From: Minisyncoccota bacterium
GTDB taxonomy: Bacteria > Patescibacteriota > Minisyncoccia > Phycocordibacterales > UBA2100
Direction: 5' to 3'
Assembly: GCA_022842645.1 (NCBI GenBank)
Contig: JALHPE010000003.1
Span: 10,445 to 74,444, forward strand
DNA length: 64,000 bases
In this document: positions 6,263-22,578 of the stretch, in pieces
Layout: the number at the start of each line of letters is the position of its first letter
Numbering within the stretch: position 1 is the stretch's first letter
The notes under the pieces: model-generated
Told to the model about the DNA's origin: nothing
Seen by the model: only the letters and a program-made list of their open reading frames with translations
Databases searched by the model: none
Made by a program: the position numbers and the translations under genes

Positions 6263-6829
6263 TTATTTGAGCCAGTAGGTGCGGAGCGTGACGTCAAAGC
6301 GGTACAAAGGCTCAGTGCCTTGGGCGCTCAAGTCAGGATCCATACTGAGCTCCACAAGATCAACAATGCGCAAACTATTCTCTAGAGCATTCATAAACTC
6401 CACGAATTTCGGGTACGAACCGCTCGTGGCAAATTTAAGAGTGAGCGAATCGGTTTCATTGTAATCTGCACCAATAACCGCTGCGTCCCCGGTGTTTGCA
6501 GTAAGTCCTTGAGCATCGATGACTACGTTTTGCAGGGCAAAGCCGTGCTTCGATGCGAGTGTGTCGAGATCTAAGACGAGGCGCACATTGTCAACGTGAT
6601 CCGGAAGAAGTTTCTTCAGACGATCAATGTCGACCGGATTGAATGCGTTATATCTCGAGAGCAGTTGCTGTTTCAAACGCTGCAGTTCATCGGCTTTGGA
6701 GAGCGCACTATCATATTCGGTGATTTGTACTTGCATGGCGCGCGCACCGTCATACGCAGGCTTCGTATACATCACAAAGATTGCGACCGATGCAGCAAAG
6801 AGAGCGATAGTAAAAATAATACGCATCAT
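6263..6829 (-). CDS. pilO: PilO-like pilus assembly protein
   Basis: 188 aa, N-terminal TM (IIFTIALFAASVAIFVMY) then coiled-coil and periplasmic domain. Gene order pilM-pilN-pilO. Confidence 0.55.
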   Translation of the reverse strand: MMRIIFTIALFAASVAIFVMYTKPAYDGARAMQVQITEYDSALSKADELQRLKQQLLSRYNAFNPVDIDRLKKLLPDHVDNVRLVLDLDTLASKHGFALQNVVIDAQGLTANTGDAAVIGADYNETDSLTLKFATSGSYPKFVEFMNALENSLRIVDLVELSMDPDLSAQGTEPLYRFDVTLRTYWLK

Positions 6830-7512
6830 AGAGTTTCTGGTGTTCCTTGCGGCTCACCAGCAGGTTCGAGCGGCGTGCCGAACGGTGTGGGGAGTGCGGA
6901 TTCTTCAGTTTGATCTGGCAATGTCACCTGCGCCGCGCGATACCGTAGTTTGGTTGGATCAACCGCAGCAGTAAAATCAAAGCGCACCCCCTCAATAGTC
7001 CTATTGATGTTGGAAAAAATCGGATTAAGAATGAGACCACTTCTCGCTAAAAGATCCGCCTGAAGCGCGATGGAATTGACGCTCTGTGCAACCCCCTGCA
7101 TCGCAATACCCATTTCGGTGTCATTCTGGGCAGTGAAGCTGAAGTTTGAAAACGCGACCGTCTGGAGCGTCAGCTGCTGTAACAGTTCGAAAATATCAGA
7201 GGGAGCAGTGTGCGTCGCAAGCACCTCATCAGCAGCTTTCATACGATCATCAAGACGCGTGAGCTCGCTGATAAGCGCAGGCTCGAATGCTTCTTTCGCT
7301 CGCTGCAGCTGCGCACGCTTGCTCTCCGCAGCAGTCGAGAGGTACTGCACATATAAAAAGACGCCAACTGCGAGTACGACGGAAGCAAAAAAGAGCACCA
7401 ATGAGACGAGGAGCCCGAGATCAGCGCCACCTTTTTGCTCGCGCCGTCCTCCAGCACTCGGCGCCGAAATAGGTGCTTGTGGTATAAACGAAGAACGAAT
7501 GTTTGATTCCAT
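6826..7512 (-). CDS. pilN: PilN-like pilus assembly protein
   Basis: 228 aa, single TM (LVSLVLFFASVVLAVGVFLYV) followed by coiled-coil. Directly downstream of pilM with 4-bp overlap to pilO. Confidence 0.55.
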   Translation of the reverse strand: MESNIRSSFIPQAPISAPSAGGRREQKGGADLGLLVSLVLFFASVVLAVGVFLYVQYLSTAAESKRAQLQRAKEAFEPALISELTRLDDRMKAADEVLATHTAPSDIFELLQQLTLQTVAFSNFSFTAQNDTEMGIAMQGVAQSVNSIALQADLLARSGLILNPIFSNINRTIEGVRFDFTAAVDPTKLRYRAAQVTLPDQTEESALPTPFGTPLEPAGEPQGTPETL

Positions 7513-7530: not shown

Positions 7531-8682
7531 CTAGCCCTTCCTGAGTTCACGTAACGCGAGTCCGACCGGCACTGCAAAACCAGGGCCGATCGACTGAAGC
7601 ACTTGATCAAGAAATGCCGGTGCTTCAGTACGACTAAACGGATTCGCAATTTCCACCTGCGCGTGGAGCGCCTGATTCGCAAATCCTTGAAGTCCAGGAA
7701 GCGATGCGCCACCACCGCACAAAAGCACGTGCGACACATCTTTATTGTATCGCTTCCCGTAGCTCAATAGTACCCTATCAGCCTCTCCAAAGAGGCGCTC
7801 GAGTGTGGATAGAAGAGACTGCTTCACTTTATCATTTTCATCGACAGAAAAAGCTGAGGAACTGGTGAGCCCGCGCTCGCGCTTCACGCGCTCCGCTTTC
7901 TCAAAATCCCACGAAAGCGAGCGCGCAAGATGTTCGGTCATTTGTTGGCCACCGACCGTCGCGAGATGCGTCATGCGCACTACCCCGCGCTCGACGATAT
8001 ACATTTTTGTTGTTGAGGCACCCAAGTCAATCACCAGAACTGGTGCCAAACCATGGCCGAGGGAGCTCCGAATTGCACTGAAGATTTCTATTTCATAAAA
8101 ACGCGTGGAAAGTCCGGCGCCCGCGGCGATCGTCTGAAAATTGCGCACTGTATCGTTGTGAATGGCAACGAGAAGCACTTCTTGCCCCTTACTCTGAAGC
8201 GCCGTTTTGCCTTGAATACGATCAAAGGCCGCATCGCTTCCTTCTTCGGGCGGAATAACGAACCAATCAAGCATAACTTCCGAAACTGGCACTGGAATAT
8301 ATTTACGCGCCTCGATCGGAATCATTTGTTTTAAATGTTCCGGGTCAGTTTTGGGGAGATCGATAATCGAAACAAGGCTCGAAGAGAATGGTATCGACAT
8401 TCCCGCAACCTTTGCCGTGACATTCGCCTCCCGCATGAGGTCGAGCAGTGCTTCGGTTAAGGTTTCCGGCGAGAGCTTTACTGCTTTCCCCACTGGTTCT
8501 TTCGCATAGGGAGCAAGCGCGATTTCGCCATAGGTCTCGAGGACTGCCGCACCATGCGCAGAACGAAGTTGCACCACTTTTGCAGACGCCGCGCCTATGT
8601 CGACACCAATAACGCTACTCTCGGTTTTTCCCGTGAGCGCGGCAGAAAGCTTTTGCGTGAGCGTCCCTAACGATAACGCCAT
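7531..8682 (-). CDS. pilM: type IV pilus assembly protein PilM (actin-like ATPase fold)
   Basis: 383 aa. N-terminal VIGVDIGAASAKVVQL typical of PilM/FtsA-like proteins. Two actin-fold halves. Confidence 0.8.
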   Translation of the reverse strand: MALSLGTLTQKLSAALTGKTESSVIGVDIGAASAKVVQLRSAHGAAVLETYGEIALAPYAKEPVGKAVKLSPETLTEALLDLMREANVTAKVAGMSIPFSSSLVSIIDLPKTDPEHLKQMIPIEARKYIPVPVSEVMLDWFVIPPEEGSDAAFDRIQGKTALQSKGQEVLLVAIHNDTVRNFQTIAAGAGLSTRFYEIEIFSAIRSSLGHGLAPVLVIDLGASTTKMYIVERGVVRMTHLATVGGQQMTEHLARSLSWDFEKAERVKRERGLTSSSAFSVDENDKVKQSLLSTLERLFGEADRVLLSYGKRYNKDVSHVLLCGGGASLPGLQGFANQALHAQVEIANPFSRTEAPAFLDQVLQSIGPGFAVPVGLALRELRKG

Positions 8683-8731
8683 AGAGACAAGTATACCGTA
8701 CTTTGTATCGTGTGCGTCGTATGAAAAGCGA

Positions 8732-8765
8732 CAACTGGCTCAAATGGCGCCGATTGAGCCAGTTG
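8732..8765. repeat. ~34-bp palindromic element (copy 1), overlaps the RT stop codon
   Basis: CAACTGGCTCAAA TGGCGCCG ATTGAGCCAGTTG: 13-bp arms with one mismatch. A second 7-bp hairpin CACACGC/GCGTGTG lies at about 8776-8796. Confidence 0.5.
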
Positions 8766-9789
8766 CATATATGCGCCTCACACGCGCCTGAAGCGTGTGC
8801 GCATTGCCATGGGAGAGTAGCCCCAGATATGAATCGCGGACATGTTTATTCTCAGTGTGTGCGGCACAGTTCCGCAACATCCGTCGCTTCGTAGTCGTGC
8901 GCAGGACGCAATGGTCGGGAAAATGCACCCAGCCGAGGAAATCAACTCCAGACGCAAGAGTTGAAATTGAGATTTTGTTAGGATGCAGTTCGAGCTTGAG
9001 TGTCTCGCGCAGAAATACTGCTGCATGCGGCAGCATTTCTGTGAGTTCTCTGCGATCATGCGATAGAAAGACGAAATCATCCGCATACCGAATGTAGTAT
9101 CGTACCCTCAAGTGGTGTTTTACGAATTGGTCGAATTCGTTCATATAGATATTGACGAGAAGTTGCGAGGTAAGATTGCCGAGCGGCAGTCCCTTGCTAG
9201 GTACTCCCGAATCAAAGCTTGCGATAACGCGTCCGATGAGATCGACGATACGTTTGTCGCGAATGTGAGACGCAATAATGCGCATAAGCGTTTCCTGGTC
9301 GATCGAAGCAAAGAATTTCCGTATGTCGCATTTCAAGACCCAACACGTATGCGTATGGTTGCGCGAGACTTTGTATGCAAACGAGCGAAATCGATTCATC
9401 GCATGATGCGTGCCTTTCCCATTTCGACATGAGTATGAGTCCGCGATGAAGGTGCGGTCGAAGAATGGGTAGAGCTTGCGATAGAGCGCATGATGCAGGA
9501 GTCGGTCACGCACTGTGGCTTTGTGGATGTTTCTTGGCTTTGGGTCGGAGATGTTGAAGGCGCGGTACGGACCGTGCACGTATGTTCCTGCAACCAAGTC
9601 ACGATTGAGCGCAAGAATATTATCCATCAATCGATATTGAAATTCCTGCACATCTTGTTTCTTTCGCTTCCCGCGCACGAATTTCTTCCATGCCGCAAGG
9701 AGATTCGGAGCGGAGATGATATCCTCGTAGGTATGAGCGAAGACAAGATCCACACACCTAAGCCTGCCCCCCCCCTCACCTTTTTGCAA
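8740..9789 (-). CDS. DGR-type reverse transcriptase
   Basis: 349 aa. RT motifs: VLKCDIRKFFASID (motif A), LPLGNLTSQLLVNIYMNEFD (DGR-type [I/L]GxxxSQ instead of group-II/retron QGxxxSP), YIRYADDFVFL (YxDD), LELHPNK, FLGW thumb. No maturase/endonuclease domain. The true start may be the downstream GTG at 9753, because a C9/G9 homopolymer lies in codons 5-8. Confidence 0.85.
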   Translation of the reverse strand: MQKGEGGGRLRCVDLVFAHTYEDIISAPNLLAAWKKFVRGKRKKQDVQEFQYRLMDNILALNRDLVAGTYVHGPYRAFNISDPKPRNIHKATVRDRLLHHALYRKLYPFFDRTFIADSYSCRNGKGTHHAMNRFRSFAYKVSRNHTHTCWVLKCDIRKFFASIDQETLMRIIASHIRDKRIVDLIGRVIASFDSGVPSKGLPLGNLTSQLLVNIYMNEFDQFVKHHLRVRYYIRYADDFVFLSHDRRELTEMLPHAAVFLRETLKLELHPNKISISTLASGVDFLGWVHFPDHCVLRTTTKRRMLRNCAAHTENKHVRDSYLGLLSHGNAHTLQARVRRIYATGSIGAI

Positions 9790-9795
9790 CCGAAG

Positions 9796-10167
9796 CTCGT
9801 GCCCATAATTGAAAAAACTAAGGGTGCATACAAACTCTGGATACAGGCGCGGAGAAATATGCCGCGAACGGAACAGTTTGGGATTGGCAAGAAAACTGAC
9901 GATCTTTTTTTGATGCTTATGGAAACACTGCGCCGCGCATCATTTGCGGCGCATCAAGAGAAAATACCACTTCTCACTCATGCGGTTGGGCTCACGGATT
10001 CGCTCCGCTTTTTCCTTCAGATCGCATGGGAAAATGTTTTGGTCCGTCAGAATCAATACATTCCCTTAGCAACTGAAATCGAAGAGATTGGTCGCATGAT
10101 AGGTGGATGGCGCAAGGGTCTCGTTGCAAAAACCCCGCTTGAAAAAAGCGGGGAAAGAAAAGAGTAG
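9796..10167 (+). CDS. avd: Avd-like accessory variability determinant (four-helix-bundle protein), encoded antisense between TR and RT
   Basis: About 123 aa from GTG 9796 (ATG at 9859). N-terminal AYKLWIQA resembles the LxVWQKA start of Avd/TIGR02436 proteins. C-terminal ATEIEEIGRMIGGWRKGL resembles the conserved Avd C-terminal helix (E..RML.GLI). Stop codon TAG 10165-10167 abuts the TR. Orientation is opposite to RT/TR, which is atypical. Confidence 0.5.
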   Translation, partial: LVPIIEKTKGAYKLWIQARRNMPRTEQFGIGKKTDDLFLMLMETLRRASFAAHQEKIPLLTHAVGLTDSLRFFLQIAWENVLVRQNQYIPLATEIEEIGRMIGGWRKGLVAKTPLEKSGERKE

Positions 10168-10282
10168 CGGGAAGCAACCTGGTTGCCAGCATTCCACTCG
10201 TTCGGATTCGTCACGGAGTTCGCGAACAAGCTCCACCCACCGTTGTCGGAGTTCCAGTTCGCGTTCACGGCCCAGAGTGCTT
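10166..10282 (-). repeat. DGR template repeat (TR), sense on minus strand
   Basis: 117 bp, 111/117 identical to 10614-10730. All 6 mismatches have T in the TR on the plus strand (A on the sense strand): 10244, 10253, 10259, 10264, 10265, 10282. The first 78 bp (10166-10243) are identical. Confidence 0.75.
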
Positions 10283-10535
10283 TGTGCGTAGTGCCATCTT
10301 GTATCACCACAGTTCGACCCGCCAACTGGCGGATCTACGCCGCTGTATCGCATACGGGACCTCGAAGTCCTCCAGCATCACGCACCGATTCTTATCTTTT
10401 TTGAGGCATTCGCTCGTACGCTTACGCGAGACGCATCCAGCGCAATACTGACGACACGAATGAACGAGGTGCTGCACAGAAGTCGCGACCGCCGCACTCA
10501 AGCTATCCTCAGGGGTTAGTGTATCAAAAGTAAAA

Positions 10536-10574
10536 GACCCTCTAAATCCTGCTTGCGCGAAGATTCAGAGGGTC
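10536..10574 (-). promoter_or_regulatory. hairpin just downstream (sense) of the VR, candidate DGR homing-enhancing stem-loop
   Basis: GACCCTCT (10536-10543) pairs with AGAGGGTC (10567-10574), 8-bp perfect stem and ~23-nt loop. About 40 bp 3' of the VR end on the sense strand, as described for DGR VR-flanking cruciforms. Confidence 0.4.
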
Positions 10575-10611
10575 AAAGTATCTCAAACCCAAATTTCTCA
10601 GGGTTCAAGAA

Positions 10612-11241
10612 TCAGCGGGAAGCAACCTGGTTGCCAGCATTCCACTCGTTCGGATTCGTCACGGAGTTCGCGAACAAGCTCCACCCACCGTCGTCGGAGT
10701 GCCAGTGCGCGAACACGGCCCAGAGTGCTCCATTCTTGTCACGGACGTAGAAAATATTGGCGTAGCCATTCGTAAGAAGGTTGCCCTTCTCGCCGTTCGG
10801 TTGTTTCTCCAACATCGTCCACAGGTCGGCGAGGTATGTTTCGTGCGCCTCACCGAGCTCCTTGATGATCGGCCCGTCGACCGATGCCTTGCGAAGCGTG
10901 TGAAGCTTCAGCTCGCCTGCCGGAACGTTTTCCTCGACCTTCGCGAAGTTATCGCGGAAATTGTCCCAGACGAATGCGATCTTCACCGCTGCCTTTCGGC
11001 TGGTGTCGACCTTGAAGTGGTCTGCGGCGACAAATCGGCCGGCGCCGGATACGACAACGGTTGCGACGAAGTCGAGAAGATTCGATGCGGACTTCTTGCC
11101 GTTCGCACCAAGCGAATGGTTAAGAAAGCCCTGCATGTAGCTTCCGTCGATACTTCCGTCTTCGATCTGCCGGAACAGATCTTTGAGCTGAGAGGCCGTC
11201 ACATTGGACGAACCCTCGACGACAACTTTCTGAGCTGCCAT
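10612..11241 (-). CDS. DGR target (variable) protein, 209 aa, C-terminal VR; no signal peptide
   Basis: C-terminus ...KNGALWAVFAHWHSDDGGWSLFANSVTNPNEWNAGNQVASR is encoded by the VR. TR-encoded version ...ALWAVNANWNSDNGGW... has AAC/AAT (Asn) codons at the variable positions. N-terminus lacks a signal peptide or TM. Confidence 0.7.
   Translation of the reverse strand: MAAQKVVVEGSSNVTASQLKDLFRQIEDGSIDGSYMQGFLNHSLGANGKKSASNLLDFVATVVVSGAGRFVAADHFKVDTSRKAAVKIAFVWDNFRDNFAKVEENVPAGELKLHTLRKASVDGPIIKELGEAHETYLADLWTMLEKQPNGEKGNLLTNGYANIFYVRDKNGALWAVFAHWHSDDGGWSLFANSVTNPNEWNAGNQVASR
10614..10730 (-). repeat. DGR variable repeat (VR) at the 3' end of the target gene
   Basis: Counterpart of the TR. VR bases at the mismatch positions are C, G, G, A, A, C on the plus strand (sense-strand TR A -> G, C, C, T, T, G). 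Ends exactly at the target stop codon (10612-10614). Confidence 0.75.
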
Positions 11242-11342
11242 TGGTTTTTCTCCTTAAAGAGCATCCGGCACTATTGCCGAAGTGAAAACATCATACCACG
11301 CTACCACCCAGTTTGCAAGAGCGTAAAACGGGGCTCAAAACA

Positions 11343-11390
11343 GGGCTGTTTCAGCCCCACTGGCTCAAACGGCGCCGTTTGAGCCAGTTG
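11343..11390. repeat. small hairpin plus ~33-bp palindromic element (copy 2), between the wHTH pseudogene and the DGR target
   Basis: GGGCTG TTT CAGCCC (11343-11357), then CACTGGCTCAAA CGGCGCCG TTTGAGCCAGTTG (11358-11390). About 90% identical to copy 1 over ~36 bp. Confidence 0.5.
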
Positions 11391-11399
11391 CCATTGGGG

Positions 11400-11932
11400 C
11401 TAGGTTAGCGCGTAAAATGGTCTTTTCTGCTTCCCCACCCTGGTGAGGCGACCAGTTGTGGCAAGCTCGCGCACATAGCGGCTGGCTGTTGCATCGGAAA
11501 CTCCGAGAAGAATCTGCACATCGTTGTTGGTAATTTTCCCGCGCTCGCGTGCGAGGGCGACGATTTTTCGAGACGTGCGCGCTTTTTCCCAGCGCGTTTT
11601 TCAGCTGCGTAAGCGCGCCATGTTGCAATGCTTGGAGGAAGAGGTGCGGGCGGAGGGGTGAGGGGCACGGATATGGATGATGCCGAGGGTAGAGTGGCCG
11701 GCTCTGCATGTAAAACTGGCACCTCGGATTCAGTAGCACTTTCAATGTGGGACTTACGAAGTCCCACATCAGTCGCAAGGGGCTCCATGACGGGTTTCGG
11801 AAACTCGTCATTCACCTCTGGTGTAGATTCGGGAGCTGGCTCTTGTGCAACTTGTAGGGGTACTACAACCGGCTCCTCTACTACTTCAGGCACTGGTGTC
11901 GGTTCTATAGGCACGCTCGCCTCAGCGGTCAT
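11400..11932 (-). pseudogene. proline/acid-rich N-terminal ORF plus C-terminal winged-helix HTH in a different frame (candidate frameshifted DNA-binding protein)
   Basis: Frame B (11405..11932) encodes a Pro/Glu-rich low-complexity peptide ending ...AEKRAGKKRARLEKS. A second frame ending at TAG 11400-11402 encodes RKIVALARERGKITNNDVQILLGVSDATASRYVRELATTGRLTRVGKQKRPFYAL, a wHTH like Fic/RecG-type C-terminal domains. It is preceded by an in-frame TGA and has no start codon. The frames meet around two A5/T5 runs near 11584-11600. Confidence 0.35.
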
Positions 11933-12255
11933 AGCACTGCATCAATTTTCGCCGCAACAATAAAGTCGTTTTCGGAAAGACCTTGCACCGAGTGCGTGGA
12001 GAGTTCAATTTCCACACGACCCCAGGAGAGCGAGACATCCGGGTGATGCCCTTCTTCTTCCGCGATTGCCGCAACTTTTGCCACAAAATCAAACGCCGTT
12101 TTAAAATCGGGGAATTTGAATTCTCGGGAAATGGCGCGTGCGGCTGGCCAGAGTGTCCATCCATGTATTTCTTTGAGCAAACGTTCGGCTTCTTGCACGG
12201 GAAGTGGCGGACCACCAACTTCACAGGGTATGCACTTTTTTTCCGAGAGTGTCAT
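11929..12255 (-). CDS. phhB: pterin-4a-carbinolamine dehydratase (PCD/DCoH)
   Basis: 108 aa with the EEGHHPD signature and overall PCD fold pattern. Confidence 0.85.
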   Translation of the reverse strand: MTLSEKKCIPCEVGGPPLPVQEAERLLKEIHGWTLWPAARAISREFKFPDFKTAFDFVAKVAAIAEEEGHHPDVSLSWGRVEIELSTHSVQGLSENDFIVAAKIDAVL

Positions 12256-16102: not shown

Positions 16103-17725
16103 TTGCATTACTCGTTAGTCCAATTGCATATGGCAAAGAAAAAGTCGGTGTCCCCTAAGGACATCTTCGAGCGACTTCTCAAAGATCGCTCAGCTCGCAT
16201 CGCGGCAGTGCGCCAGTCGCACCTATTATTCTTCCACATCTACTTCTCACGATACGTAAAGTACGGCACAGCACCGTTCCACAAGGAGATGTTTGAGCTT
16301 ACTGAAAACGTAAAGATACCACTCGCCGTTATCGTTGCTTTCCGCTCGTCGGGAAAATCAACGATTGTTACCACTTCATACCCACTATGGTCGATACTTG
16401 GCGAACAACAGAAGAAGTTCGTGCTCATTATCTCCCGTGTCCAATCACAGGCACAGCAACATCTTCGCAACATTAGACATGAGGTTGAGAGTAACCGGAT
16501 ACTGGCCAGTGACCTTGGACCTTTTGATTCAGAGCACGGACAGTTCGGTCTCCAGGCTCTTGTGTTCAAGAAGCTCGGAGCGAAAATCATGATTGCATCA
16601 GTCGATCAAAGTATTCGTGGACTGCGTCACTTGGAACATCGTCCTGACCTCATCATTCTTGATGACGTTGAAGATACGGCATCGGTGAAAACCCAAGAGA
16701 GTCGCAATTCGGCGTGGCAATGGTTCACAAGTGAGATACTCCCCATCGGTTCTGAAGGTACTAGGATCTTCGCTGTTGGAAATCTCCTTCATCGCGATTC
16801 ACTTCTGAAGCGCATCGAGACACAGATCGGGTTAGGCACGCTCGGCGTGTATCGTGAATATCCGATTGTGAAAGACGGCGTGCCGCTTTGGACTGCGAAG
16901 TATCCAGACGCAGATGCAATCGAAGCCGAGCGCAAACGCATCATGGATCGCGTAGCATGGCATCGTGAATACTTGTTGGAGATTCTGCCCGATGATGACC
17001 AACTTATTCATCCTCAATGGATTCAGCGATACGATACGTTGCCGACAGAACGACCTCGCCACACTCTCATTGGACTCGACCCAGCAATCTCAAAAGAAGC
17101 AAGTGCAGATTGTACGGCAATGGTTGGTATATGGGTGTATGGCTCAAAAGAAAATACAAGAATATATATCTACCCGCAGATTGTGAACAAGCGACTCACG
17201 TTCAACGAAGCGGTTCAAGAAGCTGAGGCACTCTCTCATGCCGTTGGAAACGGCAGCCGTGCCCACATATACGCAGAAAAAGTCGCCTACCAACAAGCAC
17301 TCATCGAACACCTCAAAAGCCGAGGCAATCCTGTTGACGGCATTTCCCCGGGAGGCACTGACAAGCACGCACGACTCGCGTCAGTAACGCATTTCTTCGA
17401 AACGGGCAAGGTGTTTTTTCCCAAAACCACTGTTGCTGAGGTCTTGATCAACCAGCTTCTTGGCTTTGGAGTTGAAAAGCATGACGACCTCGTCGATGCC
17501 CTCACACTCGCGCTCCACCAAGTTATGTACAAGGATCGCTATGGAGGCGCAATCGGCGTCCTCTGGAATACGCCACCTCGCGAGGAAGAGATGATGAACC
17601 TCAGTAGTCGAGAAAAGTTCGTCATCATGGAAAAGTGGCGTGAGAATAGGAACAATAATCCGTTTCTCATCAGAGGTGGCAGAACACCCATGCCCGACGA
17701 CTGGAAGCCACGCTGGGATCGGTAA
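16103..17725 (+). CDS. phage terminase large subunit-like protein (paralog 1)
   Basis: 540 aa. N-terminal ATPase with deviant Walker A VIVAFRSSGKST and Walker B LIILDDVED. C-terminal RNase-H-like nuclease with IGLDPA ... HDDLVDALTLAL (Terminase_6-type). About 45% identical to the ORF at 21070..22578. Confidence 0.7.
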   Translation: MHYSLVQLHMAKKKSVSPKDIFERLLKDRSARIAAVRQSHLLFFHIYFSRYVKYGTAPFHKEMFELTENVKIPLAVIVAFRSSGKSTIVTTSYPLWSILGEQQKKFVLIISRVQSQAQQHLRNIRHEVESNRILASDLGPFDSEHGQFGLQALVFKKLGAKIMIASVDQSIRGLRHLEHRPDLIILDDVEDTASVKTQESRNSAWQWFTSEILPIGSEGTRIFAVGNLLHRDSLLKRIETQIGLGTLGVYREYPIVKDGVPLWTAKYPDADAIEAERKRIMDRVAWHREYLLEILPDDDQLIHPQWIQRYDTLPTERPRHTLIGLDPAISKEASADCTAMVGIWVYGSKENTRIYIYPQIVNKRLTFNEAVQEAEALSHAVGNGSRAHIYAEKVAYQQALIEHLKSRGNPVDGISPGGTDKHARLASVTHFFETGKVFFPKTTVAEVLINQLLGFGVEKHDDLVDALTLALHQVMYKDRYGGAIGVLWNTPPREEEMMNLSSREKFVIMEKWRENRNNNPFLIRGGRTPMPDDWKPRWDR

Positions 17726-17764
17726 AAGACTGTGGAATACGGGGTTGGCGTGAGGGTGTAGAAT

Positions 17765-18523
17765 GTGCGTATGGAAACACAGACACGAACACCAGTGCCA
17801 ATGCTCGGCATCGTTGTGGAGGCACGGCGAGAAGCACAGCGTACCGTTGAAACGATGAATCGGGCATTGCAGCCGACACTACGAGTGCTCAACAGCGACT
17901 TCATGCGAAACTTGATGTCGATGGCGAACGCTGCCAATCGTCATATGGAGCCATTGCTTCGATTTCAAAAACAGATGGATAGCGTGCTCGGAGAACACCG
18001 TGAGGCACTGGGGTGCGCACTTTCTCCCTTCGTATCGGCGGCATACACGCACGCGACTCACCCTGAAACCATTCACTACATACCTGCCCGCCCCGTTATC
18101 AAGTCAGAACCACGTGAGATTAATGTCGAATCGATAGCGGAAGAGTTAGTGGCAGTGTTCGCAAAAAAAGGTTTGGTACTCATTGAGCGCACAACCTTTG
18201 CTCAAATCGACCTCGTATACAACCGAAAGAATCGGACACTTGAATACAGCGCAGGTACCGCGCACCGCGCTACAAGTTTCCAAGATACGGAAAGCAACAA
18301 GCGTCGTGAATTGTTCGATACTCTCGTTCAAACAAAGCGGAAAATTACAGGACGCGAGCTGAAAAAGATACTTGGCTGCCCCAACACTGATGCAACGTAC
18401 AAAGTCGTTCAGGGATTGAACCGAAAAATGAAGAATGAGCTTGGTCTCACCGTTAATATCGTGGATGGTAGTGGCCGAGATGGCTACCACATTCACAAAA
18501 CCATCGCGATCCACCCGAAGTAA
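17765..18523 (+). CDS. hypothetical protein with C-terminal OmpR/PhoB-like winged-helix DNA-binding domain
   Basis: 252 aa. C-terminal ...ITGRELKKILGCPN...NIVDGSGRDGYHI resembles OmpR-type wHTH. No receiver domain. Confidence 0.4.
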   Translation: MRMETQTRTPVPMLGIVVEARREAQRTVETMNRALQPTLRVLNSDFMRNLMSMANAANRHMEPLLRFQKQMDSVLGEHREALGCALSPFVSAAYTHATHPETIHYIPARPVIKSEPREINVESIAEELVAVFAKKGLVLIERTTFAQIDLVYNRKNRTLEYSAGTAHRATSFQDTESNKRRELFDTLVQTKRKITGRELKKILGCPNTDATYKVVQGLNRKMKNELGLTVNIVDGSGRDGYHIHKTIAIHPK

Positions 18524-18686
18524 CATCTACCCACACATCTGGAGTGTGGATAGTGATTAAAAATGGCTCTGCATAAGGGTCTTTTTTCTATGGAGTCTCC
18601 AGTGAGTAGGTATGTGTTGTGGGGGCAGAAAATGGTCTGCTTGTAATGCAGGCCTTGTGTCTGTTTACCAGATTAGCAACACATAT

Positions 18687-19961
18687 ATGGCACAAAAATT
18701 AGCATGGCGCACGGTCGACAAAAAGATATCCGACCTCGTACCGAACATAAAGAACCCGCGCACGATGTCCCCGAAGCAGGTCGACGATCTTAAACGGTCG
18801 CTCAAGAAATTCGACTTGGTCGAGCTACCTGTGGTTGACACCGACAACACCGTAATCGCAGGGCACCAGCGCCTCATGGTGCTCAAACTCCTCGGTCGCG
18901 AGCACGAATCTATCCCCGTGCGTCTACCCAATCGCAAGCTCACCCAAAAGGAATACGATCAGTACCTCCTCGGCAGCAACCGCATCCACGGCGACTGGGA
19001 CTGGCAGGCACTTGCCGACAATTTCGACATTGGAACGCTTCTCTCAAGCGGCTTCGATGACACCGACCTGACCCACATCTTCGACGACTTGGAAGTCGAG
19101 GACGACGAGTTCGATGTCGACAAAGAACTCGAAAAGATTAAAAAGCCGGTCACCAAGTCCGGTGAGATGTTCCAGCTCGGTACGCACCGCATCATTTGCG
19201 GCGACAGCACGGATCCCAAGGTGCTCAAGAGATTGATGGGTGGCAAGAAAGCAAACTCCATTCTGCAAGATCCGCCATACAACATTTCCCTCGACTACAA
19301 CAAAGGCATCGGCGGCAAGCGCAATTACGGTGGCACCGTCGATGACGCGAAGCCAGACAAGGAGTACAAAAAGTTTCTCAAGACGGCACTAGAGAACACC
19401 CTGTCGGTGCTTGAAAAAGACGCACACGTATTCACGTACTGCGATCAGAAGTACATCTGGCTCTTGCAAACGCTCTACGCCGAACTTGGCATCGCTAACA
19501 AACGTGTATGCCTGTGGGTAAAGAATAATTCAACCCCCACGCCGCAAGTTGCCTTCAACAAACAGTACGAGCCGTGCGTGTATGGCACGGTCGGCAAGCC
19601 GTACTTGAGTGAGAAGGTGTTGAATCTTTCAGAAGTTTTGAACAAAGACATCGGCACCGGCAACCGCACATTGGAAGACATCTACGACATGATCGACATT
19701 TGGTTAGTAAAGAGATTGAACGGCACCGACTACCAGCATCCCACCGAGAAACCCCCGATGCTTCATGAGAAAGCTCTGCGACGCTGTACGAAGCCGGGCA
19801 ATATCGTGCTGGATTGCTTTGGTGGCTCGGGCAGTTTGCTCATCGCCTGTGAACAACTCAAACGCTCCGCGTACTTGGTCGAACGCGAGCCGATATTCGT
19901 TGATCTCGTCATCCGCAGATATGAAAAACTCACCGGACAAAAAGCAAAAAGACTCCGATAA
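18687..19961 (+). CDS. ParB-like nuclease domain fused to N6/N4 DNA methyltransferase
   Basis: N-terminal LVPNIKNPR...AGHQRL (ParB/Srx fold). Methyltransferase motif IV ILQDPPY followed by C-terminal motif I VLDCFGGSGS (beta-class order). Start set at internal ATG 18687. Confidence 0.75.
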   Translation: MAQKLAWRTVDKKISDLVPNIKNPRTMSPKQVDDLKRSLKKFDLVELPVVDTDNTVIAGHQRLMVLKLLGREHESIPVRLPNRKLTQKEYDQYLLGSNRIHGDWDWQALADNFDIGTLLSSGFDDTDLTHIFDDLEVEDDEFDVDKELEKIKKPVTKSGEMFQLGTHRIICGDSTDPKVLKRLMGGKKANSILQDPPYNISLDYNKGIGGKRNYGGTVDDAKPDKEYKKFLKTALENTLSVLEKDAHVFTYCDQKYIWLLQTLYAELGIANKRVCLWVKNNSTPTPQVAFNKQYEPCVYGTVGKPYLSEKVLNLSEVLNKDIGTGNRTLEDIYDMIDIWLVKRLNGTDYQHPTEKPPMLHEKALRRCTKPGNIVLDCFGGSGSLLIACEQLKRSAYLVEREPIFVDLVIRRYEKLTGQKAKRLR

Positions 19962-20688
19962 GTTCTGGCAGCTCGGAGATCACCGACTCGCGCAAGGCGA
20001 TTGCCGTGATGCCACGCTCCTCAAAACGTTGCTCGGTATAGAGCATATCAACGTACTGTGTACAGATCCGCCGTATGGAGTTGCAGTCGCAGAGTCCAAG
20101 CGCAACTTCAGGACGCTCACCAAGGACAAAGACATCGCCGGCGATCAGCTGCAATCGGATGAAGAGTACCGTCAATTCAGCAAGGAGTGGTTGGAGGCAC
20201 TCGTGCCCTACCTCGCCAAGAAAAACAGTGCGTACATCTTCAACGCCGACAAGATGGTGTGGTCGTTGCGCGACGGCATGGCTGATAGCGACTTCAAGAT
20301 CGCGCAATTGCTTGTATGGGTGAAGCAACAATCCGTCATCGGGAGATTGGACTATGCCCCTCAACACGAACTCATCGTGTATGGCTGGCATGGTACGCAC
20401 CACTTCAGGCGCTCGAAGGATAAATCGGTGCTGTTCTACCCGCGCCCCAACAAAAGCAAATTGCATCCGACCACCAAACCGATTGGCTTGGTACGGCGAC
20501 TCGTCTTCAACAGCACCAGCATGGGTGATGTTGTTTTCGATGGGTTCCTTGGGAGCGGTACGACTCTGTTGGCATGTGAGCAGACAAAACGTCGTTGCTT
20601 CGGGATCGAGCTTGATCCCGAGTACTGCCAGACCATCATCAAACGTTGGGAAAAAATGACCGGCCGCAAAGCAAAACGCATATGTTAA
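19921..20688 (+). CDS. N6/N4 DNA methyltransferase (second copy)
   Basis: LCTDPPYG (motif IV) and VFDGFLGSGTTLLACE (motif I). Overlaps the previous gene by ~40 bp, and its own end overlaps the TerS-like gene. Confidence 0.75.
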   Translation: MKNSPDKKQKDSDKFWQLGDHRLAQGDCRDATLLKTLLGIEHINVLCTDPPYGVAVAESKRNFRTLTKDKDIAGDQLQSDEEYRQFSKEWLEALVPYLAKKNSAYIFNADKMVWSLRDGMADSDFKIAQLLVWVKQQSVIGRLDYAPQHELIVYGWHGTHHFRRSKDKSVLFYPRPNKSKLHPTTKPIGLVRRLVFNSTSMGDVVFDGFLGSGTTLLACEQTKRRCFGIELDPEYCQTIIKRWEKMTGRKAKRIC

Positions 20689-21089
20689 AGAAAAGCGACC
20701 AACTCAAGGCTGCTCTACTGGAGCAGCTACGAAAGACGCCAATCATTCAGATCGCGTGCGAGAAATTAAACATCTCCCGCATGTCCTTCTATCGCTGGAA
20801 ACAAGAAGATCCGGAGTTTGCAAAGAACATTGATGATGCGCTCCTCGACGGACAGCTTTTAGTAAATGATCTTGCAGAATCGCAACTGATATCAGCGATT
20901 AAGGATCGAAACATGCACGCCGTTATGGCGTGGCTCAAACATCACCATCCGTCATACACCACACGAGTACAGATCGAAGGTACGGTCAACACCATTCAAG
21001 AACTCTCACCCGAGCAAAAGGAATTGGTGCGGAAGGCACTCGAATTAGCAAATCTAACCCTCAACGACCATGAACAACTTAACGCATGA
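20682..21089 (+). CDS. terminase small subunit-like HTH protein
   Basis: About 135 aa. ACEKLNISRMSFYRWKQEDPEF is an HTH_23/terminase-small-subunit-like helix-turn-helix. Immediately precedes and overlaps the second TerL. Confidence 0.45.
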   Translation: MLKKSDQLKAALLEQLRKTPIIQIACEKLNISRMSFYRWKQEDPEFAKNIDDALLDGQLLVNDLAESQLISAIKDRNMHAVMAWLKHHHPSYTTRVQIEGTVNTIQELSPEQKELVRKALELANLTLNDHEQLNA

Positions 21090-22578
21090 CAAAGATATGT
21101 TTGAGCGGATCTCAAAAGACCGCACGGTGCGGCGAACTATCGCCCGCGAGAGCCACCTCATGTTCTTCTACGTCTACTTTCCCCATTACGTCACGTATGA
21201 AATAGCCGAGTTCCAAAAGGACATATTTCGCATTACAGAAGATGCGGGTAACAAGCTCGCGGTTATTGTGGCTTTTCGCGGGTCAGGGAAATCAACGCTC
21301 GTTACGTTCTCATACTCCCTCTGGGCGATGCTTGGAGTCCAACGCAAGAAATTCGTGCTCATTATCTGCCAAACGCAGACGCAAGCAAAACAGCATCTCA
21401 TTAACCTCAAGCGAGAGTTGGAAAGTAACATACTGCTTCGGAACGACCTGGGGCCCTTTCAAGAAGAGAGTGGCGAATGGGGTGCCTCGGCACTGGTATT
21501 TCCGCAGCTGAAGGCAAAAATCATGGCGGTCTCCGCCGAGCAAAGTATCCGAGGCCTCCGACACAACCAACATCGTCCCGACCTCATAATCTGCGACGAC
21601 CTCGAAGATATGGCATCAGTGAAAACGTATGAGAATCGGCAGAAAATATACAACTGGTTCTCGGGTGAGGTTATGCCCCTTGGGGATCGGAATACCCGAT
21701 GCGTTGTTGTCGGTAACCTGTTGCACGATGACTCGCTCGTGATGCACCTAAAGAAAGATATCGAAGAGAATCAACGTGATGGCATTTTCAAGTCATATCC
21801 TCTCATTGATGAAAAAGGAAAGACGCTCTGGCCGGGGAAGTATCCGACGGATGCTGATATCGCAGAAGAAAAGAGAAAGAGCGGTAATGAGTACGCATGG
21901 CAGCGCGAATACCTGCTACATATCGTACCGGATGAAGATCAGGTTATTCATCGAGAATGGATCCAGTATTACGACACGATAACCCACAACAAGGATCAAT
22001 TCTATGGCGTATTCATGGGTGTCGATTTGGCTATCTCGCAAAAAGAAACTGCGGACTATACGGCGATGGTAAGTGCGGTCATGGCGTCATCACGAGAGGG
22101 TGGGCTCTGCGTCTACATCCTACCGAATGTCATCAATCGACGCATGAATTTCCCGCAAACTATCGAACAGATAAAGGCGGTGTATAACGCGAACAAGACA
22201 CTCTACACAACACACATTCTCGTTGAGGATGTCGGGTATCAAAAAGCGGTTATCGACCAATTGGGACACGACTCATACACTGCCGAGGGTGTGAAAGTAA
22301 GCTCAGACAAACGCTCACGCCTGATTACCATCTCGGACATGATTAAAAGGGGCAAGATAAAGTTTCCAAAGCAAGGGGCTGAAGCATTAATCCGGCAAAT
22401 TGTCGGCTTCGGTGTTGAAAAGCACGATGACCTTGTCGATGCGTTCACCATTGTGGCTCACAAAAGTGTTGAACTTGATAGACCGTATCCTGGAATCCTT
22501 TGGATCCCACTCGGACAAAATCGTAACGACTACTATGACGATGATGATTTTCGCGTCACGATGGATACGATCTGGTAG
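21070..22578 (+). CDS. phage terminase large subunit-like protein (paralog 2)
   Basis: 502 aa. VIVAFRGSGKST Walker A, LIICDDLED Walker B, nuclease motifs MGVDLA ... HDDLVDAFTIVAH. Confidence 0.7.
   Translation: MNNLTHDKDMFERISKDRTVRRTIARESHLMFFYVYFPHYVTYEIAEFQKDIFRITEDAGNKLAVIVAFRGSGKSTLVTFSYSLWAMLGVQRKKFVLIICQTQTQAKQHLINLKRELESNILLRNDLGPFQEESGEWGASALVFPQLKAKIMAVSAEQSIRGLRHNQHRPDLIICDDLEDMASVKTYENRQKIYNWFSGEVMPLGDRNTRCVVVGNLLHDDSLVMHLKKDIEENQRDGIFKSYPLIDEKGKTLWPGKYPTDADIAEEKRKSGNEYAWQREYLLHIVPDEDQVIHREWIQYYDTITHNKDQFYGVFMGVDLAISQKETADYTAMVSAVMASSREGGLCVYILPNVINRRMNFPQTIEQIKAVYNANKTLYTTHILVEDVGYQKAVIDQLGHDSYTAEGVKVSSDKRSRLITISDMIKRGKIKFPKQGAEALIRQIVGFGVEKHDDLVDAFTIVAHKSVELDRPYPGILWIPLGQNRNDYYDDDDFRVTMDTIW

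Follow-up and report, generated by a model that had tools for sequence, protein, structure and literature searches.

A CPR-type diversity-generating retroelement with a covarying leader RNA that may guide homing to the variable repeat

Introduction

Most diversity-generating retroelements (DGRs) of Patescibacteria (CPR) share architecture B3, 'TR-(avd)-RT', in which a reversed avd gene follows the template repeat (TR) and is itself followed by the reverse transcriptase (RT) gene on the TR strand (Wu et al. 2018, PMC5758913); this architecture accounts for 90% of CPR DGRs (PMC5758913). DGR clade 2 is confined to Patescibacteria, and its targets are without recognisable domains (Roux et al. 2021, PMC8144416). 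For the DGR of Bordetella phage BPP-1, it was proposed in 2017 that RNA which is linked to the cDNA and lies near the site of priming base-pairs with the IMH (PMC5703328), and Avd-binding stem-loops have been predicted 3' of the TR in other DGRs (bioRxiv 10.1101/2023.10.23.563531). How mutagenised cDNA finds and enters the variable repeat (VR) is described as 'incompletely understood' in a 2026 study (PMC12875486).

Here, we describe a locus at 8740–11241 of a 64,000-nt stretch of a Minisyncoccota genome (the window). A preliminary description had read this region as a complete DGR with RT, Avd, TR and VR-bearing target; this core reading was supported in every test run, and each component lies where it had been placed.

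Results and discussion

Organization of the locus

The genes and repeats of the locus are as follows.

11290–11318, minus strand: sigma-70-like promoter (TTGCAA-17-TGnTATGAT), 49 nt before the start codon (ATG) of the target
10612–11241, minus strand: target gene, 209 aa, with the VR at the C-terminus
10614–10732, minus strand: VR, the last 39 target codons; 5 (core) or 7 (extended) differences from the TR, all at TR adenines and all in the 5' third
10166–10284, minus strand: TR, rich in AAC codons, with 25–27 adenines
9799–10167, plus strand: avd accessory gene, divergent from RT and convergent with TR; its stop codon overlaps the last TR bases
8740–9789, minus strand: DGR RT gene, a 349-aa ORF with a TTG start at 9789 and an alternative GTG at 9753

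Along the minus strand, the order is promoter, target with VR, two hairpins with a U-run, a -10-like box, leader RNA, TR, a stem-loop with a U-run, avd (on the other strand) and RT. Because avd is inverted, the layout formed by TR, avd and RT is the CPR-typical B3 'TR-(avd)-RT' and not that of the Bordetella phage. A complete DGR of this layout is, with high confidence, the best explanation of 8740–11241. The target-TR-(avd)-RT cassette is common to about 35 of 80 related loci, TR and VR differ at 12–26 almost purely A-specific positions in about 35 related loci, and all homologues of named source are from Patescibacteria. Since its type is common in Patescibacteria (CPR), the DGR is ordinary as an element. 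An Rfam search over 8500–11600 returned no family at E <= 1 apart from two chance-level matches.

An Avd-like ORF ending at the TR had been noted previously. Its end was placed correctly, the stop codon (10165–10167) abutting the TR end at 10166; that it lies on the plus strand, whereas RT, TR and target lie on the minus strand, had gone unmentioned. The GTG start at 9799 is a presumed start, the mechanical ORF beginning at 9490. The product matched Pfam bAvd PF22296 (4.2e-10; 40.5 bits, cut-off 40) and positions 2–104 of the NCBIfam model DivGenRetAVD (7e-15; 55 bits, below the cut-off of 80), and a PDB sequence search with it gave nothing meaningful. These matches point to an Avd gene adjacent to both TR and RT, as in other DGRs, and avd is inverted in all 40 related loci where tblastn placed it beside the TR. 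The avd and RT start codons are only 9–45 nt apart, and a promoter scan called no promoter for either gene.

The target matched no family in Pfam or NCBIfam; a PDB sequence search gave nothing meaningful, and a Foldseek search of its model against PDB and BFVD gave no match. It is the one member of its cluster at 90% identity and belongs to a family of at least 402 Patescibacteria proteins, in which the hypervariable columns fall at the VR. The protein probably has a divergent C-type lectin fold.

TR/VR pair and degree of diversification

The direct repeat pair previously taken as TR and VR was recovered as two 116-nt copies at 10166–10281 and 10614–10729 (96% identical, spacing 448), the second comprising the final 39 codons of the 209-aa ORF, as had been described, and no third copy occurs in the 64-kb window. 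Tabulation of the mismatches, which had been suggested as a check, gave 5/5 changes from TR-A to VR-N on the minus strand (hypergeometric p = 3.3e-4; 25 A in 116 nt). The pair can be extended to 10284 and 10732 via two more A-to-G differences, which brings the count to 7/7 at A, and the next difference is at a C. A 65-aa ORF in the VR-TR spacer is spurious, and a record look-up with it gave no match.

The VR is only lightly diversified and is fixed in the sampled population. Only 5 of the 25 TR adenines (20%) are changed in the VR, compared with 37–79% in relatives; the 3' two-thirds of the TR contain 14 adenines, all of them unchanged (0/14), and the 3'-terminal 76 nt of the VR are identical to the TR. 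The VR is also identical across seven independent assemblies, one of which spans the full VR and six its 5' part, where all TR-differing sites are located. No diversification within the population was seen among these assemblies, which were compared as consensus contigs, where minority variants are invisible. An assembly chimera behind the TR-like VR is unlikely because an independent contig (L005) covers the VR-specific 5' part together with the entire shared stretch, and the six other assemblies agree over the variable sites.

It is possible, though on balance doubtful, that the DGR is now silent or decaying and that the near-identity of VR and TR results from a recent non-mutagenic TR-to-VR conversion or duplication. 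At the per-adenine rate of the relatives, 14 untouched adenines out of 14 would have a p of at most about 1.5e-3, and this reading would also fit the identical VR in assemblies of different runs, the TR-identical 3' end and the frameshift in the adjoining 175-aa ORF. However, RT, avd, the TR adenines, the leader RNA, the guide/flank complementarity described below and the hairpins are all intact, the 5–7 existing differences are all at adenine sites, and minority variants would not show in consensus contigs.

Elements flanking the VR and the TR

Four elements lie next to the two repeats.

10607–10613, minus strand: VR 3' flank GATTCTT, overlapping the stop codon and starting where TR/VR homology ends
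10536–10610, minus strand: two hairpins 3' of the VR (10610–10581 and 10574–10536), the second followed by a U-run (10535–10527)
10518–10526, minus strand: extended -10-like box TGATACACT, directly after the target terminator
10128–10153, minus strand: stem-loop CCCCGCUU/AAGCGGGG plus UUUUU, located 12 nt beyond the 3' end of the TR and antisense in the 3' coding end of avd

The flanks of VR and TR part right after CCCGCT. By its location, GATTCTT may represent the IMH-type element, and the hairpin that had been noted just 3' of the VR was borne out, with two hairpins present rather than one. The 96-nt stretch containing them has a folding energy of -39.4 kcal/mol (z = -7.1), and the second has a conserved stem (GACCCUCUG.../...CAGAGGGUC). 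A long hairpin with a T-run 40–75 nt past the stop codon was found by the scan in 23 of 26 related loci, about 21 of these cases being convincing. The box at 10518–10526 was not called by a simple promoter scan; its consensus in alignment A4 is TTTTGnTATACT, the T, A and final T of the hexamer being invariant in 23 loci, and it is presumed to be the promoter of the TR RNA. The stem-loop after the TR was matched by a terminator scan (fold -15 kcal/mol), and 25 of 26 loci have a hairpin with a T-run at the corresponding position, their stem sequences differing; compensatory changes were found in three of the five consensus pairs. The stem-loop is terminator-like and occupies the position at which Avd-binding stem-loops have been predicted elsewhere.

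A structured leader RNA and a guide-like segment

The region directly 5' of the TR contains two further features.

10274–10415, minus strand: conserved, structured RNA domain immediately preceding the TR (alignments A4 and A5)
10387–10393, minus strand: guide-like segment AAGAAUC, next to the closing helix on its 5' side and complementary to the VR flank GATTCTT

The RNA domain, 128 nt in length, is present at 45 loci and shows strong covariation. A 12-bp closing helix (5' strand 10385–10374, 3' strand about 10296–10285) encloses two stem-loops and A-rich single strands, and RNAalifold found compensatory changes at 25 of the 27 pairs. In the alignment, 95.8% of cells are paired, compared with 36–49% in slid controls, and the observed values were reached in 0 of 500 shuffles. 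The covariance model R1 gave 45 matches, all between target and TR and none elsewhere in 638 kb. The domain has no match in Rfam, and the literature searched, which did not include Paul et al. 2017, contains no description of a conserved RNA domain 5' of the TR or of its complementarity to the VR flank.

Beside the closing helix, a stretch of 5–11 nt is complementary to the sequence that directly follows the cognate VR. The mean contiguous Watson-Crick run between guide and VR flank in 39 distinct loci is 7.1 nt for cognate and 4.7 nt for non-cognate pairs, and the cognate mean was reached in 0 of 10,000 permutations. The leader RNA shows this complementarity to the VR flank but not to the TR flank. 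If priming took place in cis, as in BPP-1, the leader would have to pair with the sequence 3' of the TR, and such pairing was not significant (132 of 3000 permutations; 1197 of 3000 with G-U allowed). Covariation and complementarity suggest a permuted DGR RNA that carries a guide for the homing boundary.

The mechanism that we propose on these grounds is as follows. The TR would be transcribed as its own RNA unit with a structured leader of about 230 nt, the predicted order being primer or guide, stop-duplex strand, small stem-loop, A-rich strand, stem-loop, other duplex strand, TR and Avd-type stem-loop, an apparent circular permutation of the Bordetella-phage DGR RNA. RT and Avd would bind the TR RNA and copy the TR to cDNA with errors at adenines, and the cDNA would replace the VR, so that Asn-coded positions of a lectin-like binding face would change. 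The 5–11 nt beside the closing helix would pair 3' of the VR, not 3' of the TR, and would thereby determine both the boundary of homing and its direction from TR to VR. The ends of the transcript, the site of priming and the role of the guide are those that we infer from sequence comparison. The joint proposal has two parts: in CPR B3 DGRs the RNA would be circularly permuted relative to that of the Bordetella phage, the elements for priming, the stop duplex and RT binding preceding the TR and the Avd-type stem-loop alone following it, and a 5–11-nt guide pairing 3' of the VR would determine where homing ends on the 3' side and which repeat is donor and which recipient. This proposal is tentative, and we give it slightly less than an even chance.

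Both partners of the complementarity are on the same strand, about 220 nt apart, and covariation alone cannot separate cis from trans pairing. They might thus form a structural helix within a single long transcript of target mRNA, leader and TR and not a DNA guide. We regard this as unlikely: a hairpin with a U-run and then the box with the invariant T, A and final T lie between the partners, and orphan targets without a leader or TR within 1–6 kb downstream retain the same VR-flank types. In addition, locus L102 has two tandem diversified VRs with the TGATT flank on both.

The 39 loci with a TR-adjacent RNA segment covarying with the DNA past the VR fit the hypothesis made in 2017 for the Bordetella phage (PMC5703328). 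If RNA-guided recognition is the true explanation, they would provide the first phylogenetic (covariation) evidence of RNA-guided target recognition by DGRs. The defined 128-nt RNA and the 7-nt guide/flank pair to which the comparison led are open to mutation and, if confirmed, would give retargeting rules for a compact CPR DGR type. As an element, the DGR described here adds one more to a lineage already known to be DGR-enriched.

Genomic setting

Comparison with close relatives delimited the following features.

8714–11938: insertion of about 3.2 kb relative to close relatives, containing a 175-aa ORF and the DGR, with one palindrome between the two and another at the far end of the DGR
8734–8766: 33-nt palindrome overlapping the RT stop codon (fold -20.8 kcal/mol)
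11359–11391: second copy of the palindrome, lying between the target promoter and the 175-aa ORF upstream of it (fold -31.4 kcal/mol)

In relatives with a PilM in the same 90% identity cluster, pterin-4a is followed by pilM after 15–72 nt, with no DGR; homology to them stops at 11939–11942 and resumes at 8713/8695. Because the pterin-4a dehydratase gene adjoins pilM in these relatives, the DGR-bearing segment of about 3.2 kb is an insertion. The 175-aa ORF upstream of the target is frameshifted.

The 33-nt palindrome has only two copies in the window, which bracket the DGR. The same palindrome occurs in Kaiserbacteria and other CPR MAGs at intergenic positions just after stop codons with no DGR nearby, and the matches to palindrome and pterin-4a are from Kaiserbacteria MAGs. 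None of the 80 related DGR loci has it, nor do the relatives with an empty site. Palindromes as cassette ends or attachment sites were rejected because of these non-DGR intergenic sites and the absence from the 80 related loci; the palindrome is probably a lineage-specific intergenic hairpin. A copy in L022 is syntenic and lies after a homologous HTH gene.

As described previously, RT and pilM share a strand, with 58 bp between the RT stop codon and the pilM ATG (8682), and read-through into the pilus operon had been considered conceivable. This link was not supported: the cassette is in an insertion, and relatives with pterin-4a directly before pilM lack it; pilM has its own -10-like box (TATACT), which is conserved in these DGR-less relatives, and a strong 13-bp hairpin (-20.8 kcal/mol) lies between RT and pilM. 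A functional tie to the type IV pilus, through co-transcription into pilM or a target acting as a pilus-associated adhesin, is therefore highly improbable, even though in two related loci a distant pilM-like gene can be found within 6 kb. No pilM is nearby in the remaining 33 or so of about 35 related DGR loci, and the target, which has no Pfam or NCBIfam family, shows by eye no hydrophobic N-terminal stretch, prepilin-like leader or transmembrane segment. The position of the DGR beside the pilus operon is incidental.

Reverse transcriptase

The 349-aa ORF has the LGNLTSQ, YADD and FLGW motifs attributed to it previously and matched Pfam RVT_1 (1.8e-25). In a PDB sequence search, its closest relative of solved structure was the Bordetella phage BPP-1 bRT (8ub7; 1.6e-44, 156 bits), whereas group II intron RTs (about 1e-21) and proteins deposited as 'retron-type RT' scored about 76–79 bits and the single named retron RT 31 bits. 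LGNLTSQ and YADD align to IGSLTSQ and YMDD of bRT. With [I/L]GxxxSQ replacing QGxxxSP and YxDD present, the RT can be assigned to the DGR clade. A group II intron or retron RT lacking [I/L]GxxxSQ, the finding that the preliminary description had named as contrary to its reading, was not encountered. The top NCBIfam match was the group II intron RT model TIGR04416, with 156.6 bits against a cut-off of 300, retron models were far below their cut-offs, and no DGR-RT model was among the matches. An RT score at the cut-off of a group II intron or retron model together with a cognate structured RNA was not found. That the RT comes from a group II intron or retron and that the repeat pair is an unrelated duplication, for which only the identity of the best NCBIfam model and the lack of a DGR-RT match speak, can be dismissed in view of the score far under the cut-off, a score for 8ub7 twice that of any group II or 'retron-type RT' protein, the [I/L]GxxxSQ motif, the lack of any intron RNA or retron msr/msd in Rfam, the adjoining Avd gene and the adenine-only TR/VR mismatches.

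Comparison with known systems

The BPP-1 DGR (mtd-avd-TR-brt) resembles the present locus in its homologous RT (1.6e-44) and Avd, adenine-specific mutagenesis, C-terminal VR, hairpins 3' of the VR and stem-loop after the TR. Its 'cPRT Stop' resembles the duplex of about 12 bp just 5' of the TR here, with its small stem-loop and A-rich strand. In contrast to BPP-1, avd is inverted here and downstream of the TR, the structured RNA is 5' of the TR and not in a 3' spacer, the post-TR stem-loop is followed by a U-run, the U-run hairpin is about 40 nt from the VR and not directly after the IMH, and the target is a small cellular protein and not a phage tail fibre.

Group II introns have related RTs (about 78 bits), and their EBS/IBS logic, in which a short RNA can base-pair with the DNA flanking the insertion site, resembles that of the guide-like segment. 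Unlike these introns, the locus has no intron RNA (no Rfam match), no maturase or endonuclease domains and no self-mobility, and information goes from TR to VR inside one locus.

The CPR B3/clade 2 DGRs share with this locus their gene order, inverted avd and host lineage, a small target with no recognisable domain and a C-terminal VR, and a TR with AAC codons. There is no essential difference between them, the present copy being unusually little diversified.

Identification and organization of the DGR

The element of the window is a genuine and complete diversity-generating retroelement (DGR) of the B3 (presumably clade 2) kind known from CPR bacteria. The features identified are as follows.

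Features of the DGR and its surroundings (window positions)
8734-8766 and 11359-11391: 33-nt near-perfect palindrome (CAACTGGCTCAAAyGGCGCCrwTTGAGCCAGTTG), bracketing the DGR; the only two copies in 64 kb
8740-9789, minus: reverse transcriptase (RT) ORF, 349 aa; Pfam RVT_1, 1.8e-25
10153-10128: stem-loop after the template repeat (TR), antisense to the 3' coding end of avd
10166-10281 and 10614-10729, minus: direct repeat pair, 116 nt, 96% identical, spacing 448 (repeat search)
10274-10415, minus: core RNA domain, the only covariance-model match in the window
10393-10387 and 10613-10607, minus: guide-like segment (AAGAAUC) and VR flank (GATTCTT)
10526-10518, minus: promoter-like box, window version TGATACACT
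10610-10581 and 10574-10536: hairpins 3' of the variable repeat (VR), the second followed by a U-run; -39.4 kcal/mol, z = -7.1
11400-11932, minus: 175-aa ORF, after the pterin-4a dehydratase gene
16103-17725 and 21070-22578, plus: terminase-large-subunit-like genes (Terminase_6C; Pfam calls, same-population contig L009)
18612-19961 and 19765-20688, plus: N6/N4 DNA methyltransferase genes (Pfam calls, L009)

The 349-aa RT with a DGR motif, which had been reported in a preliminary description made from the sequence alone, was recovered at these coordinates, and its closest solved structure is the Bordetella phage DGR RT (bRT; 8ub7; 1.6e-44, 156 bits), in alignment with which LGNLTSQ stands opposite IGSLTSQ and YADD opposite YMDD. 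Group II intron RTs and 'retron-type RT' deposits reached only ~76-79 bits, and the single retron RT identified by name scored 31 bits, which argues against the alternative that the enzyme belongs with either of those classes. No DGR-RT model was found among the NCBIfam matches of the RT, and the NCBIfam group II model scored 156.6 (cut-off 300).

The repeat pair described as 117 bp was likewise found, and no third copy was detected in the whole 64-kb window by blastn with the repeat as a query. In minus-strand orientation, the five TR-to-VR mismatches comprise one AA to TT, two A to C, and one A to G, and the copy carrying A at every mismatch is the upstream, non-coding one (p = 3.3e-4 for all five landing on A, given 25 A in 116 nt). 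With two further A-to-G differences the pair reaches 10284/10732 and the count on TR adenines rises from 5/5 to 7/7, and the 5' boundary was placed there because the next difference falls on C. The VR forms the final 39 codons of the 209-aa target ORF (10612-11241), as had been described, and is followed by two hairpins where one had been noted. The gap between the VR and the terminator hairpin of many relatives contains several copies of a CYTTTGR-like motif at ~10-nt spacing (e.g. 1731-1800 in locus L060, 1560-1630 in L097, and 6481-6555 in L046); the series ends in a conserved stem, TTTGACCCTYTG, and the stretch is read as a C-terminal extension of the protein in some loci.

The Avd-like ORF stood as proposed in that its stop codon (10165-10167) overlaps the final TR bases and its product narrowly passes Pfam bAvd (40.5 bits, cut-off 40), to which must be added that it lies on the plus strand, opposite to the RT, TR, and target. 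The match to NCBIfam DivGenRetAVD (7e-15) is under that model's cut-off, and the domain alignment indicates a GTG start at 9799. The divergent start codons of avd and RT are 9-45 nt apart (9753-9799 in the window). A scan of this window interval found no promoter-like site, and the promoters would therefore lie inside coding sequence, or the RT would be expressed by transcription that continues from the TR unit through avd in the antisense direction.

When metagenomes were scanned with the target alignment, 80 loci were obtained, ~35 of which have a TR and homologues of RT and avd, arranged as target(+), TR(+), avd(-), and RT(+), with avd ending at the TR as in the window; their TR/VR pairs show 12-26 differences, nearly all on TR adenines. 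This is the same layout as the 'B3' architecture, TR-(avd)-RT, reported by Wu et al. (PMC5758913) for 90% of CPR DGRs and hardly ever outside CPR, and the window element is therefore a typical CPR DGR.

Target protein

The target matched no Pfam or NCBIfam family, but a search gave 402 homologues at E <= 1e-3; those few named by source are all from Patescibacteria. In an alignment of 24 homologues, residues 55-209, for which the AlphaFold model is confident, are conserved except for hypervariable columns, which correspond to the VR (WAVxAxWxxxxGGWxVxAxSVExPxxWxxGxQVxSR). A Foldseek search of the model against PDB and BFVD gave no match, and the fold is read as a divergent C-type lectin fold, although this is not proven; such a fold was anticipated for CPR targets by Roux et al. 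(PMC8144416). The N-termini of the family are modular and not homologous between members, and the first ~30 residues of some of them (MKYGNLTLGQIEAGINKIGG...) also begin a protein that is otherwise unrelated and is encoded after the palindrome in a Kaiserbacteria MAG (locus L022, 7415-7975; proteins P0023 and P0087).

Diversification state of the VR

In 25 relatives, 37-79% of the TR adenines are substituted in the VR, evenly along the repeat. In the window, 5 of 25 (20%) are substituted, all within the 5' third, and the 14 adenines of the remaining two-thirds are all unchanged; such a TR-identical 3' part is not the outcome expected of full mutagenic homing. The same VR sequence was present on contigs of seven different sequencing runs, among which no ongoing diversification was detected at the consensus level, and because one contig covers the whole shared stretch, the VR is not a single-assembly artefact. 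The VR is lightly diversified and apparently fixed in its population; gene conversion by the TR, selection for TR-encoded residues, and low activity are candidate causes of its TR-identical 3' part. The short-read contigs of this population (L001, L004, L005, and L009-L014) all break in the 76-nt stretch identical between TR and VR, so automated surveys of such assemblies would meet the DGR split over three contigs.

Genomic setting

In close relatives, defined as genomes with PilM in the same 90%-identity cluster, the pterin-4a dehydratase gene is followed directly by pilM (gap, 15-72 nt). Window homology to these genomes stops at 11939-11942 and restarts at 8713/8695, indicating that ~3.2 kb, comprising the 175-aa ORF, a palindrome, the DGR, and the second palindrome, is an insertion in the window genome. 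Transcriptional read-through into the pilus operon, suggested earlier, is not borne out: DGR-less relatives also keep the TATACT box that lies 12-17 nt upstream of the pilM ATG, a 13-bp hairpin separates RT from pilM, and a pilM-like gene lies within 6 kb in two related DGR loci only. The adjacency is thus incidental, and the DGR is unrelated to the neighbouring pilus operon.

The palindromes were considered as DGR parts and rejected, as all 80 related DGR loci lack the palindrome and it occurs just past stop codons at unrelated intergenic sites in Kaiserbacteria and other CPR MAGs (L018-L023). Its possible roles include those of a terminator, a protein site, and a REP-like element. The 175-aa ORF, called identically in every population contig, looks frameshifted: its N-terminal part matches the first residues of a 144-aa L022 protein (6825-7259), and its helix-turn-helix-like C-terminal part (KITNNDVQILLGVSDATASRYVRELATTGRLTRVGKQKRPFYALT) lies in a different frame, past a stop codon. 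The plus-strand region 16103-22578 may be a prophage remnant or mobile element.

Conserved RNA elements around the TR

In 25 of 26 loci, the TR/VR match is followed, after a few to ~20 nt, by a stem-loop of 5-12 bp with a T-run, which is shaped like an intrinsic terminator and varies in stem sequence from locus to locus; Avd-binding stem-loops were predicted at the same position in 207 of 278 DGRs (Handa et al.). Directly past the target terminator comes a box, TTTTGnTATACT, which shows no variation at its T, A, and final T among 23 loci and would fit the promoter of a separate TR transcript. The predicted transcript in the window is an RNA of ~390 nt, from ~7 nt past the box to the U-run at 10128-10132. 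The box-to-TR interval (~230 nt) is conserved.

RNAalifold predicted 27 pairs in this leader, 25 with compensatory changes. A covariance model built on its 128-nt core gave 45 matches in 638 kb (22 in loci outside the seed), every one of them located between target and TR and in the orientation of the target. In the core, 95.8% of cells are paired, vs 36-49% with partners slid by 1-3 columns; double changes occur at 20 of 22 pairs, and none of 500 shuffles matched the observed covariation values. The domain is closed by a 12-bp helix, the 3' strand of which stops ~10 nt ahead of the TR, and which encloses a 4-bp stem-loop, an A-rich single strand, a second stem-loop, and another single strand. 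No Rfam family matched it.

Covariation of a guide-like segment and the VR flank

Immediately 5' of the closing helix lies a guide-like segment with complementarity to the flank that starts exactly where TR/VR homology ends. Guide and flank covary between loci (GGAAUUG/CAATTCC; AGGAUCA/TGATCCT; AAGAGUUG/CAACTCTT; UUUACUUG/CAAGTAAA), with complementary runs of up to 11 nt (e.g. UACAGGAAUUG/CAATTCCTGTA). In 39 distinct leader/flank combinations, contiguous Watson-Crick runs averaged 7.1 nt for cognate pairs, vs 4.7 nt for non-cognate pairs and 3.75 nt for shuffled flanks, and none of 10,000 permutations attained the cognate mean. The TR's own 3' flank gave no such signal. A purely intramolecular helix is made less probable by targets that lack a leader or TR within 1-6 kb downstream and have retained the same flank types, and by locus L102, where two tandem diversified VRs both have a TGATT flank. 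As far as we found, the core RNA domain and the guide/flank covariation are undescribed in this DGR lineage, and the main value of the element is as an entry point to both.

Proposed mechanism and comparison with the Bordetella DGR RNA

The cDNA may be primed at the nucleotide adjoining the closing helix; if so, the covalent RNA-cDNA would run colinear to the VR and flank in antisense, and pairing of the guide would fix the 3' homing boundary, with the VR, not the TR, as recipient. Pairing of this kind was proposed for BPP-1 from one sequence by Naorem et al. (PMC5703328), and cDNA integration was still called unresolved in 2026 (PMC12875486). We hold this reading, a permuted DGR RNA whose guide sets the homing boundary, tentatively and at slightly under an even chance, on comparative grounds.

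In the Bordetella RNA, an upstream 'cPRT Stop' strand is followed by ~8 nt, the TR, an Avd-binding stem-loop, the primer (Sp53-56), the second duplex strand (Sp59-70), a small stem-loop, adenosines, the single-stranded 'thumb ring', and an RT-binding stem-loop (Handa et al.). The CPR order is a guide/primer-like segment, a duplex strand, a small stem-loop, an A-rich strand, a stem-loop, a single strand, the other duplex strand, ~10 nt, the TR, and a stem-loop. We infer that the two RNAs contain the same elements, in circularly permuted order in CPR, an arrangement that would be understandable if the inverted avd left no room for a 3' spacer.
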